Positions 36,001 to 39,821 of a DNA stretch of 39,821 nt are shown here, in pieces; the first letter of the stretch is position 1, and every line of letters starts with the position of its first letter. A program made the position numbers. This DNA comes from a virus. Taxonomy: Duplodnaviria > Heunggongvirae > Uroviricota > Caudoviricetes. Location of the stretch: the IMG/VR virus record IMGVR_UViG_3300045988_152494, positions 1 to 39,821 of that record; one strand, 5' to 3'.

Positions 36001-39000
36001 AGTTAAACTATCACCCTCAAACTCATCCTGTTCGTGGTTACTCTGACGATCGGCTGTGTGTTTACGTATTTGATTCGCTATTTCCCCACCAACGGTCTGT
36101 TGTGATCGGATAGAATTAGTACTTCCCTTCATCATCTGAGGGGTCCGCTTGGAAAACGGAAATTACCCCACGTTAAGACTATTTTTTGTACAAAGCGGTA
36201 TCGACTGTACGTAATGAGCGGTATTTTCCGGATCCCAGCTTAAGATTATTACGCCAGACGTAATCTCCACTCAGATTGATATGTTCCCAGCCCAGGGGAG
36301 AAAGATGAGAGACCAGTTGCTCATTTATCGGGATACCCTTTCGTTTTAGTGACTCAATAGCTCTTTCTATATATACCGTGTTCCACAACGTGATCGCCGC
36401 TGTCAGTAATGTCAGCCCGCTGGCGCGATAACTCTGATTCTCCAGCCCACGATCCCTTATTTCACCCAGACGGTGCAAAAAGACCGCTCGAGCAAGGGCA
36501 TTACGGGCCTCACCCTTATTCAGCCCCGCCTGCACGCGTCGGCGCAGACCGGGATCACGGAACCAGTCCAGCATAAATAGTGTCCGTTCGATGCGGCCAA
36601 TCTCTCTCAGCGCTTTGGCAAGTCCATTCTGTTTTGGGTAACTGGCTAACTTTTTCATCATCAGTGATGCGGTGACTGTCCCCTGCTTAATCGAGGTTGC
36701 CAGGCGCAATACCTCATCCCAGTGCGACTCAATGTATTTGATATTCAGGCAGGTTGTTGATATGACAGACTGAAGCCCCGGATAGCGCTCGGCCTTTCCA
36801 TGAATAAACAGCCGCTTGTCATGAAGATCACGGATTCTTGGCGCAAAAGCGAATCCCAGCAGGTGCATCAGGGCGAAAACATGTTCAGTGAAGCCTGCGG
36901 TATCGGTGTAATGCTCGGTAATTTCCAGATCGCTTTCATGGTACAGCAGGCCATCAAGCACGTGGGTTGAGTCGCGCACCCGGCTGATCACTTTGGCGTA
37001 GAACGGGCTGTATTGGTCTGAGATATGCGTATAAATCTGCACGCCCGGCTCCTGACCATATTTAAGATTGACCTGACCGGCATAACGCCCGTGACTGCCT
37101 ACCCGAAAGTTCTGCCCGTCTGACGACGATGTTGTCCCGTCGCCCCAGAATGCGGCCAGAGGCCGCGCTTTCTGAGCGTTGACCAGCTCGGCCAGTGCCG
37201 CTGAATAAGTTTCATCTCTGATGTACCATGCCTGAATACTTTCGAGTGACGATCTTGTGGCCCCAGGGCAGGATTCCGCCATTTTTGTCAGCCCAAGGTT
37301 GATGCCGTCAGCCAGAATGGTGGTCAGCAACAGTCTTCCGTCTTTTGGTCTGACGTTATTATTTTTGAGGTGCGCGAAGTGACGCGTAAATCCCGTCCAG
37401 CTATCAACTTCTTCCAGTATCTCCGTAATTTTCGGATGGGGAAGCATGCCATAGACCAAATCTGCAAAGGGCGAAACACCTGAAGGAACGCTGTTCTCCA
37501 GTGGAGTGATTTTTACGCCTTTATCTGAGATATCAACATCGGGCAAATCACCGGCAAGCGCCATCGCGTTAACTTCTTCCAGCCGAGATGCAAGAAGAGT
37601 CATACGGGCCTGAAGGTATGCCTGGCTATCGGTCTGAACGGCCAACTGTAACTGGTCATTATGTCGGGATTTCTCAAACTCAGCAGTCGGGATGAGATAA
37701 TCATCAAAATTTTTGTAGCGGCGCGATCCTTTTACCCAGATATCACCGGAACGTAATGCACCCTTGAGTTCATTCAGTACGCAAAACTCGTAGTACTTGC
37801 GGTCGATGCCTGAAGGCGTGAGCACCAGTTTTCGCCAGCTTTCAGGGATAAACCCTGTTGGCGCCGATGGCGGCACTTTACGAAGTTGTTTACGGTACAT
37901 TTCCGTTATGGTGTCCAGCGCATCGCTGAGCGCCTGCGCCGCAGGTGTCGCCATGAACTGCAATGCTGACAGCATCCGCGGGGCATATTTACGCAGCGTA
38001 CTGTATTTTTCGGTGATCAGATGAAGCGCGTCGAAATTGCCCTTACGGGAAAGAAACCGCGTTTCTTCCACGCTGTTGATGAATTCCTGCCAGGGAAGGA
38101 CATCTTCTATTGCAGTCCAGGGATCTTCCCCGGATTCTCTGGCGTTAAGTAACGCCTGCCCGACGGTAACGTACTGCTTCAGCTTGCTCTGAATAAGCTT
38201 TCCCGTTTGCTGGAGCCGTTCGGCCTGCGTGCGTTTTGCCCTGCTGAACAGACTACCCAAGATACGCTCGTGCAGATCAATCACTTCGTCAGTCAGAGTG
38301 GCCCTGGCCTCTATTATTATACAAACCAGCGTAGCGTAACGTCTGACATCGGTGAATTTTGCCAGGTCCCTGCTGCTCATTTTCCGGCCCTCACGCGCCA
38401 GTTTAAGCAACCTGTTCTGGTGAACGGAAAGCGCAATACCATCAGGCAACCCCAGCGCAGCGATGGAATTAAGCCGGTCGATATGTTGCAGCACATTTTT
38501 ACCGTTTATTTTACCCGGAGGCTGTAGCAGCCATGCCAGACGGGAAGGTTGTTCACCCTCTGATATGAGCAGGCTGTCGAGTGCTGATTTATGCTGCTTT
38601 TCCAGTTGCGCGGTAAGTGTCGAAAATACCGATCTGTTAGCGAGCGTGACGACTTCGGCAAGCGTCCGTTCGATCACTTCAACAGAAGGGAAAATAACAT
38701 TATTGTTATGTAGCCAGCTGAGCATTTCTTCCGCCAGCATAAATCCTTTGTCAGTTCGCATGGCATCGGGGTGCAGATGACGGATACAGTCTTTTTGCAT
38801 TGACCGGCTGAACGGGGATAGTTCCAGGTAGCGATAAAGTTCGGTCAGATGTTCCCAGCGGGTTTGCTCTCTGGATGCATATTCCGGCCATAAATCAGGC
38901 TGAAGTTTCAGTCGGGAAGCAACCCTGGTTACAACGCCATTGTGAGGAGCACTGCTTTTGTCCGGAATAAATCCGGGTCCACGCAGATAACAGAGTAATA

Positions 39001-39821
39001 CAGCAAAGCCCAGGCGATTCGCTGGCCGTCGGTGCTTATTAATGAGCGCAATATCCGGTTCGTTCAGAAAACACATTCGGGTCAGAATAATTTCATCATC
39101 TGGTATAACCAGTAAGCGTTCCTGCTCTTCACTGCTCAGTATCTGTCGCCGTGGCATAAATGCTTCCCTCGCGTATAGTTTTCATCTGTTATTTGTTCGC
39201 TGTGACCGAAACCGGTCGGTTTCGTACATCACTTACAGCACATGTCCGAAACTTAGCGAAATTAATTTCGGACACACGTTATAATTCGGACACCCATTTC
39301 GTACGGAAAGTTTCCCATGTCACGTGTTTTTGCCTACTGCAGGGTCTCAACTCTGGAACAGACCACAGAAAACCAGCGTCGTGAAATTGAAGCGGCAGGT
39401 TTTGCCATCAGATCCCAACGACTTATTGAGGAGCATATCAGTGGCTCGGTTGCTGCCAGCGAACGCCCCGGATTTATCCGGTTGCTAGATCGCATGGAAA
39501 ATGGGGATGTACTGATTGTCACCAAACTTGACCGTCTGGGTCGTAATGCGATGGATATCCGAAAAACAGTAGAGCAACTGGCGGCTTTAGATATTCGCGT
39601 TCATTGTCTCGCACTCGGAGGCGTTGACTTGACCAGTCCGGCCGGAAAAATGACTATGCAGGTAATTTCTGCTGTAGCGGAGTTTGAGCGGGATTTGCTG
39701 CTTGAGCGAACGCATTCAGGTATTGCGAGGGCAAAAGCGGCTGGAAAACGCTTCGGTCGCCCTCCCTAGACTGGCCCCCTGAATCTCCAGACAACCAATA
39801 TCACTTAAATAAGTGATAGTC

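Follow-up and report, generated by a model that had tools for sequence, protein, structure and literature searches.

Sequence comparisons identify the end of a 39.8-kb viral contig as the left arm of a Tn2501-type transposon with tnpR truncated by IS2

Among Tn3-family transposons, Tn2501 is said, after the work of Michiels and colleagues, to have a tnpA and terminal inverted repeats (IRs) like those of Tn21, together with a divergent tnpR whose product belongs to a separate resolvase lineage. The regulatory role of the resolvase TnpR is established for Tn3 and gamma-delta (Tn1000), and the classical phenotype of a tnpR-null Tn3 consists of unresolved cointegrates together with derepressed tnpA. 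In Tn21, res, tnpR and tnpA are co-directional, as seen in pHCM1. In gamma-delta, as seen in the F plasmid, tnpA and tnpR are divergent and res lies in the spacer of about 160 bp between them. In the lactose transposon Tn951, Tn2501 is the transposition module, according to the passages of PMC3316555 and PMC7175801 that cite Michiels et al. (1987). Elements named Tn2501 in E. coli pSFO157-type plasmids are 3.8 kb long and without passengers (PMC7175801), and a deltaTn2501 region has been described in the 273,271-bp P. rettgeri plasmid p18004577_NDM (PMC9845711).

We analyzed a window of 39,821 nucleotides of E. coli DNA (positions 1 to 39,821 of IMG/VR record IMGVR_UViG_3300045988_152494). Sequence comparisons indicate that it ends in the left arm of a transposon of a common kind, the Tn2501 type of the Tn3 family, with tnpR truncated by IS2. 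All of the sequence features listed in the initial annotation were recovered at the same positions, and Rfam and ARAGORN detected no RNA genes in the window. The transposon lies next to a 3′ fragment of its target, the island gene trbL (35983–36139, − strand; in E. coli LR-31, PGAP annotates the same flanking sequence as partial TrbL), the last 5 bp of which, TCTGA (36135–36139), represent the left copy of the target-site duplication. The fragment is followed by the 38-bp tnpA-proximal terminal IR (GGGGTCCGCTTGGAAAACGGAAATTACCCCACGTTAAG; 36140–36177), with 1 nt between the repeat and the tnpA stop codon (CTA at 36179–36181 on the + strand). The tnpA gene (36179–39157, − strand) is intact and encodes a 992-aa protein, which has the size of the large (~1000 aa) DDE transposases of the Tn3 type and matched the Pfam profile DDE_Tnp_Tn3 over positions 1–389 of 389 (E 2e-150) as well as DUF4158 over its full length.

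The same transposon is found at the same trbL site and with the same left flank in E. coli LR-31, where it is intact. This copy spans 10,604 bp, is bounded by IRs on both sides, encodes a TnpR of 194 aa and carries nine passenger genes. TCTGA, of which the window holds the left copy, is present on both sides of the LR-31 transposon and occurs once in E. coli HKUOPY1, in which the site is empty and trbL is intact, as expected of a 5-bp target-site duplication. In a comparison of 3,667 bp with LR-31, the window showed a single difference, at one base inside the IR. IRs of the Tn3-family form (about 38 bp, GGGG...ACGYTAAG) are present at both ends in LR-31 and once in the window; the two IRs of the LR-31 transposon match each other at 37 of 38 positions, and the tnpA-proximal IR of the window matches the opposite end of the LR-31 copy at 36 of 38. 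The earlier assignment of the element to the Tn3 family is borne out by its Pfam matches, by the IR of 38 bp and by the 5-bp duplication around the intact copy. In the intact copies, the passengers form a redox/thiol-stress cluster downstream of tnpR, and the intact transposon has an osmC-like gene; the initial annotation had placed any passenger genes beyond the window, and this is where they lie in LR-31.

Within the family, TnpA and the IRs are nearer to those of Tn21 than to those of Tn3/gamma-delta. TnpA is 56% identical to Tn21 TnpA over its full length (992 versus 988 aa) and only 30% identical to gamma-delta TnpA, and the IR matches that of Tn21 at 29 of 38 positions and that of gamma-delta at 21 of 38, which supports the earlier description of the transposase as Tn21-like. 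In contrast to the co-directional res-tnpR-tnpA order of Tn21, tnpR (+ strand) and tnpA (− strand) are divergent in the window, and the resolvase is only about 34% identical to Tn21 TnpR. The divergent arrangement, with res in the spacer, is shared with Tn3/gamma-delta, whereas TnpA and the IR are distant from this group, as is the resolvase (likewise about 34% identical to that of gamma-delta). The recombinase gene is also divergent in relatives whose TnpA is 87% and 75% identical to that of the window. A further relative with a 74%-identical TnpA, encoded beside tet(A), was considered as Tn1721 and rejected: its N-terminus matched a Leclercia element, and it carried no Tn1721 or TnAs1 label.

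A Tn21-like transposase with 38-bp IRs, a divergent tnpR of the low identity given above and res between the two genes correspond to the definition of Tn2501 given above. Tn2501-type is the more precise name for the element, assigned by its architecture and the labels of its relatives rather than by the prototype sequence. In its source, a protein with 92% identity bears the name 'Transposon Tn2501 resolvase'. Further, P. rettgeri plasmids of exactly 273,271 bp contain a 99.1% identical module, to which the deltaTn2501 label of PMC9845711 probably refers. A look-up of clusters named 'Tn2501 resolvase' returned one automatically named Yersinia protein and nothing else, and a search for the Tn2501 prototype in the supplement of the SGI1 res paper gave no result. 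Among E. coli plasmids, minimal copies of 3.6 kb have only about 84% DNA identity to the module of the window. Unlike the 3.8-kb elements without passengers that bear the name Tn2501 in PMC7175801, the present element is 10.6 kb long in its intact form and carries redox-stress cargo, and its tnpR is here broken by IS2.

The spacer between tnpA and tnpR (159 bp, 39158–39316) presumably contains res and the divergent promoters. The half-site TGTCCGAAA, with one mismatch or fewer, has 13 matches in the whole 39.8-kb window, five of which fall within 39203–39292, where about 0.04 would be expected by chance. The half-sites TGTCCGAAA/TGTACGAAA form dyads at 39203–39228, 39243–39274 and 39284–39305; inverted repeats I3 and I4 were also detected in the spacer, and a TATAAT hexamer is located at 39280–39285. 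The half-sites were invariant in four relatives, in which the neighbouring bases were variable and the spacer had otherwise diverged. We take the half-site to be similar to that of gamma-delta. Crossover and accessory roles were not assigned to the three dyads, as their spacings (26, 32 and ~22–26 bp) fit sites I–III of gamma-delta poorly. A promoter scan gave no prediction overlapping the dyads. A serine resolvase gene next to a three-dyad spacer is the resolution module of the Tn3 family, present here with a recombinase that is without its DNA-binding domain, and the divergent tnpR with a res-like spacer that had been noted at first is in accordance with this arrangement.

The truncated tnpR (39317–39769, + strand) comprises codons 1–150 of the gene for the 194-aa serine resolvase. 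Its 150-aa product ends with ...GKRFGRPP followed by TAG (39767–39769), which is the first triplet of IS2, and it is identical at all 150 positions to the LR-31 protein (WP_008502231.1), which runs on to 194 aa; in intact copies, the sequence continues after the break point with ILSEEQ... up to residue 194. Pfam detected only the Resolvase domain in the window protein (residues 4–144, E 1e-38), and detected HTH_7 at residues 147–189 in addition in the intact protein. The truncated product retains the catalytic domain of a small serine recombinase, in which Ser11, the nucleophile, aligns with Ser10 of gamma-delta resolvase; the long E-helix and GR arm motif are retained as well. In the alignment with gamma-delta resolvase, the break falls at residue 144, ahead of the C-terminal domain, so the C-terminal HTH characteristic of these recombinases is missing from the product. 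By comparison with the relatives, this absence of HTH_7 is a loss and not an ancestral lack. These results agree with the initial proposal that IS2 cut the resolvase exactly at the TAG and removed the HTH domain.

The last 55 bases of the window (39767–39821, + strand) are identical at 55 of 55 positions to the annotated left end of IS2A, an IS3-family element, of E. coli K-12 MG1655 (from 381260). The window ends inside IS2, and the visible 55 bp lie upstream of insC, the first IS2 gene; the IS2 genes are co-oriented with tnpR. Alignments to all intact copies in the E. coli and plasmid collections end at window position 39766. The exact 150-aa product was found on 23 contigs from NCBI, Logan, ENA and JGI samples. 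Ten of these were listed; they are 98.9–100% identical to the window, and eight of the ten carry the junction string, beyond which their sequence is that of IS2A to the contig end. The junction-carrying samples include SRR6106403, GCA_030204995.1 and GCA_013404105.1. Sibling contigs reach 19–109 bp into IS2 and are identical to it throughout (109 of 109 in the longest, L004); the initial annotation had named a downstream sequence other than IS2 as evidence against its reading, and for the visible part the sequence is IS2. All five listed contigs that reach the whole IR have its C variant, and, combined with this T-to-C change, the exact tnpR::IS2 junction cleanly marks the lineage of a set of E. 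coli isolates. The junction was absent from the complete E. coli genomes and PLSDB plasmids searched.

Taken as a whole, the observations are very probably explained by a Tn2501-type transposon in trbL into which IS2 was inserted later, after codon 150 of tnpR. The transposon would first have entered trbL of a decayed integrative element in an E. coli chromosome and duplicated TCTGA. Because the intact transposon occupies the same trbL site in LR-31, the IS2 hit seen in the window came later, and it would have occurred in one E. coli lineage. Insertion of IS2 gives a 5-bp target duplication, and a simple insertion is the usual outcome. By analogy, CTCCC (39762–39766) is the predicted target of IS2 and is expected again beyond the far IS2 end, where a simple insertion would read ...GGGGCAAATCCA-CTCCC-ATCCTGAGCGAGG, that is, the IS2 right end followed by CTCCC and ATCCTGAGC...

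A different outcome, which we consider unlikely, is a rearrangement (an adjacent deletion mediated by IS2, an inversion, or recombination between its copies) in which the 3′ part of tnpR was lost or moved elsewhere along with the passengers and the second IR, leaving a one-ended immobile remnant. It would account for the finding that the IS2 right end followed by 0–12 nt and the remaining tnpR had no match in the collections of genomes (one genome per species), metagenomes (JGI) and viral contigs (IMG/VR). Likewise, seven predicted chimeric open reading frames across the far junction, with varied duplication lengths, were absent from the protein collection, and the short members of the resolvase cluster (63–99 aa), checked as possible C-terminal pieces beyond IS2, were all N-terminal fragments. 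In addition, all contigs with the left junction end inside IS2, and IS2 is present in many copies in E. coli, with a median of three and a maximum of 41 places per genome. However, the left junction is missing from the same three collections as well, and therefore the negative results for the far junction say little; further, short-read contigs always break in IS2, which makes the absence of the junction weak evidence, and IS2 usually inserts in the simple way, duplicating 5 bp. Of the sequences that the initial annotation had expected to find by extension beyond the window, the IS2 left end was followed to 109 bp, and the second IR and the 5-bp duplication were found in the intact LR-31 copy, whereas the far junction with the remaining tnpR was not found.

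The possibility that the junction is an assembly artefact, in which the end of a contig was misjoined to a repeat, is very remote. The window does stop 55 bp into a multicopy repeat, as is typical of the ends of short-read contigs; however, eight independent contigs (draft or metagenome), from separate assemblies and sequencing runs of different sources, share exactly this junction, and therefore it is not an artefact. Moreover, IS2 starts at the junction with its very first base, as real transposition would give. Least probable of all, to the point of being negligible, is a naturally short resolvase that consists of the catalytic domain and only resembles IS2 by coincidence at its end, a conserved form of which the initial annotation had named as a reason to abandon its reading: this has nothing beyond the in-frame stop in its favor, whereas the best 120 homologues are all 188–246 aa long with Resolvase and HTH_7, the otherwise identical LR-31 DNA reads through to 194 aa, and the 55 bases past the break are those of IS2.

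In the favored history of a simple IS2 insertion after codon 150, the locus would produce a 150-aa protein without the whole C-terminal HTH_7 domain, which would recognise the res half-sites. Judged from this domain loss, the element in the window has probably lost the ability to resolve its own cointegrates. Further, by analogy with Tn3 and gamma-delta, repression of the divergent tnpA and tnpR promoters in res, and with it autoregulation of the two genes, would also be lost. Since res is intact, a related resolvase acting in trans, or RecA, could still resolve the cointegrates, and since tnpA and the visible IR are intact as well, transposition, as well as resolution in trans by a related resolvase, is possible. 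If it still transposes, a resolution-defective copy in which tnpA and res are intact could favor the stable fusion of replicons.

IS2 in the tnpR of a Tn2501-type transposon is one mobile element inside another, an ordinary situation, and it is of little importance in itself, as insertions of IS elements into transposon genes are routine. For annotation, the appropriate label for the locus is a tnpR pseudogene, disrupted by IS2, within a Tn2501-type transposon in trbL.

The cargo of the intact copies suggests, tentatively, a wider reading. The element may be an unnamed 10.6-kb Tn2501-type transposon whose cargo is a compact version of the allicin/thiosulfinate-tolerance ('alt'-like) cluster known from onion-pathogenic Enterobacter and Pantoea. 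The transposon is widespread on replicons of clinical Klebsiella, Enterobacter, Providencia and E. coli, and by it a trait of tolerance to plant defence might have been moved among human-associated Enterobacterales. The IS2 hit in the window might then uncouple the cargo from the tnpR promoter and make the element derepressed and cointegrate-forming. A literature search by protein accession and IR sequence found no paper on the element. Annotations of it occur in hundreds of public records.

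The Tn3-family element at 36140-39821 began with the 38-bp terminal inverted repeat (IR) GGGGTCCGCTTGGAAAACGGAAATTACCCCACGTTAAG (36140-36177), which lay 1 base from the stop codon of the transposase gene tnpA (36179-39157, minus strand). TnpA comprised 992 codons and matched the Pfam profile DDE_Tnp_Tn3 end to end (E 2e-150), as well as DUF4158. The resolvase gene tnpR (39317-39769, plus strand) was divergent, with 159 bp between its start codon and that of tnpA, and ended after 150 codons with ...GKRFGRPP followed by TAG. In all these respects the arrangement was as proposed in the initial annotation.

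The TAG had also been read as the first triplet of the left end of IS2. From this TAG on, the final 55 bases of the window indeed matched, at 55/55 positions, the left end annotated for IS2A in E. coli K-12 MG1655. The matched end is that upstream of insC, and IS2 and tnpR therefore share one orientation. The exact 150-aa product was recorded on 23 contigs (NCBI draft assemblies, Logan assemblies of sequencing runs, ENA and JGI). The ten contigs shown were all 98.9-100% identical to the window, and eight contained the junction string; each of these ran 19-109 bp further, to the contig end, in sequence identical to IS2A. Because multicopy IS2 breaks short-read assemblies, these contigs and the window end inside it. 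Among 5,426 complete E. coli genomes and 72,556 plasmids, the tnpR-IS2 junction was not found in any record, and every alignment of an intact copy ended at window position 39766. We concluded that the junction marks a genuine insertion that has become fixed within a single E. coli lineage.

An intact copy was present in E. coli LR-31 (NZ_AP027520.1), which shared the window DNA, with one difference in 3,667 bp, and the same left flank. This element is 10,604 bp long, its second IR matches the first at 37/38 positions, and it splits trbL between direct repeats of TCTGA; in E. coli HKUOPY1, trbL is uninterrupted and TCTGA occurs once. Thus, the second IR and the 5-bp target duplication, which the initial annotation had expected beyond the window, were both present in LR-31, and the identical left flank indicates that the window copy and the LR-31 copy go back to one insertion. 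The single difference was a T-to-C change at window position 36166, position 27 of the IR (ATTATCCC to ATTACCCC), and was common to all five IS2-junction contigs that spanned the whole IR. A sibling assembly (GCA_902842755.1) carried a 136-bp deletion equivalent to window 36161-36296, in which the inner IR and the 3' end of tnpA were lost and a fused ORF of 1011 aa was formed; this is a second, independent decay step in the same element.

On the far side of IS2, the default expectation is a simple 1.3-kb IS2 insertion with a CTCCC duplication. The IS2 right end followed by 0-12 nt and ATCCTGAGCGAGG... had no match in the genome, metagenome and viral contig collections, and none of the seven predicted far-junction chimeric ORFs that were looked up was found. 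Since the left junction is likewise absent from those DNA collections, the far-junction negatives are uninformative. It is unlikely that an IS2-mediated deletion or rearrangement took away the remainder of the transposon.

Downstream of Pro150, the LR-31 resolvase continues with ILSEEQKQ... to a total of 194 residues, with HTH_7 at residues 147-189 (Pfam). The window product corresponds to residues 1-150; Pfam detected only the serine resolvase catalytic domain, and Ser11, the E-helix and the FGR arm motif are retained. Its end point corresponds to residue 144 of gamma-delta resolvase, ahead of the C-terminal domain, in agreement with the proposal that IS2 removed the HTH domain. A naturally short resolvase was ruled out, because the closest 120 resolvase clusters were all 188-246 aa long with Resolvase and HTH_7 domains. 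The truncation of tnpR is therefore real and secondary, and IS2 was inserted later than the transposon.

TnpA was 56% identical to that of Tn21 (from pHCM1) and 30% to that of gamma-delta (from F), and the IR matched at 29/38 and 21/38 positions, respectively; the description of TnpA as Tn21-like was therefore correct. Gene order differs from that of Tn21, which is co-directional, and is divergent as in Tn3 and gamma-delta. The resolvase was approximately 34% identical to those of both Tn21 and gamma-delta. A divergent recombinase gene was also found in Shewanella and Leclercia relatives (TnpA 87% and 75% identical). In the latter (plasmid pZ96-1_3, locus L018, 7067-8071), IS4321 lies directly after tnpA at the position expected for the terminal IR, of which just the inner ACGTTAAG end is recognisable (18/38 overall). 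IS4321 and IS5075 target Tn21-type IRs.

The 1987 reference for Tn2501 is cited in PMC3316555 and PMC7175801, and a deltaTn2501 region is described in the 273,271-bp P. rettgeri plasmid p18004577_NDM (PMC9845711). P. rettgeri plasmids of exactly this length, of which pPROV275-2NDM was inspected, carry a module 99.1% identical to that of the window, and we infer that the deltaTn2501 label refers to it. Further, a 92% identical Yersinia protein carries the source name 'Transposon Tn2501 resolvase'. The element is provisionally named Tn2501-type instead of Tn2501. Elements of this kind are already known, and this one is present and annotated in hundreds of public records; the secondary IS insertion that it carries is ordinary.

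The 159-bp spacer between the tnpA and tnpR starts is a putative res. The motif TGTCCGAAA (at most 1 mismatch) had 13 matches in the 39.8-kb window, 5 of them within 39203-39292, and the res-like dyads reported earlier were recovered at 39203-39228 and 39243-39274, with a third half-site group at 39284-39305. When the spacer was aligned with those of E. coli O26 (module about 84% identical), Shewanella and Providencia plasmids, the half-sites were invariant and the bases between them varied. This pattern fits a three-subsite res. A perfect TATAAT (39280-39285) lies between half-sites, 32 nt 5' of the tnpR ATG, a position that would be compatible with autoregulation; in a scan for consensus promoters, no promoter-like site overlapped the spacer dyads.

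For gamma-delta and Tn3, it is established that sequence-specific recognition of the res half-sites depends on the C-terminal HTH domain and that the N-terminal fragment on its own lacks specific res binding. In their tnpR mutants, cointegrates accumulate and tnpA and tnpR are derepressed, because the promoters lie in res. By analogy, the IS2-hit element would have lost self-resolution and autoregulation. With tnpA, the visible IR and res intact, transposition should still be possible, as should resolution via RecA or a closely related resolvase in trans; E. coli plasmids encode resolvases that are 86-93% identical. IS2 would also cut the passenger genes off from any transcription from the tnpR promoter.

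Passenger genes had been predicted beyond the window, and in LR-31 nine were located downstream of the intact tnpR (L001, 11987-18250), in the order OsmC, TetR regulator, carboxymuconolactone decarboxylase/AhpD-like, thioredoxin, alkene reductase, DsbA, SDR, hypothetical and alpha/beta hydrolase. The same set was found on Klebsiella and Providencia plasmids. With the exception of the hypothetical gene, the order is that of the alt-like cluster on Enterobacter ludwigii EcWSU1 plasmid pEcWSU1_A (L023, 35262-45480), with 61-89% protein identity. In this onion pathogen, the cluster is described as one for allicin/thiosulfinate tolerance (Stice et al., bioRxiv 10.1101/2020.02.12.945675; Borlinghaus et al., PMC7119367). 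The passenger cluster thus resembles an alt-like thiosulfinate-tolerance cluster. Our literature search found no paper tying alt-like cargo to a Tn3-family transposon and no report that it has spread on replicons of clinical Klebsiella, Providencia and E. coli. This resemblance, which lies outside the window, is the only mildly interesting lead.

The window comes from the E. coli chromosome. A prophage occupies positions 1 to about 33,340; it has genes for tail proteins, terminase and portal, together with lambda-like bet/exo/gam, and also encodes a CI-like repressor and, at 32177-33340, an integrase. The approximately 108 bp between this and a second, island integrase (33462-34565) contain a tRNA 3'-fragment repeat (within 33355-33462, minus strand; ...GCGAAGGTCGTAGGTTCGACTCCTATTATCGGCACCA), which we take to be from tRNA-Thr/thrW and which was presumably left behind as an attachment-site repeat when elements integrated in tandem. 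PGAP labels the equivalent stretch in LR-31 and HKUOPY1 as a 112-nt 'tRNA-Ser'; ARAGORN and Rfam called nothing at 33355-33462. Two island genes follow on the plus strand (34575-35465, 296 aa with no Pfam or PADLOC match; 35452-35679, 75 aa), and then the trbL remnant, the target of the transposon. Just downstream of these two genes, LR-31 carries an IS5 that is absent from the window. In the prophage, a 535-aa SIR2_2-domain protein (25967-27574, plus strand) matched the PADLOC candidate defence family PDC-S25 over its full length (E 1e-235) and, more weakly, ThsA-like proteins; its gene lies directly 3' of that for the CI-like HTH/S24-peptidase repressor (25132-25860, plus strand).
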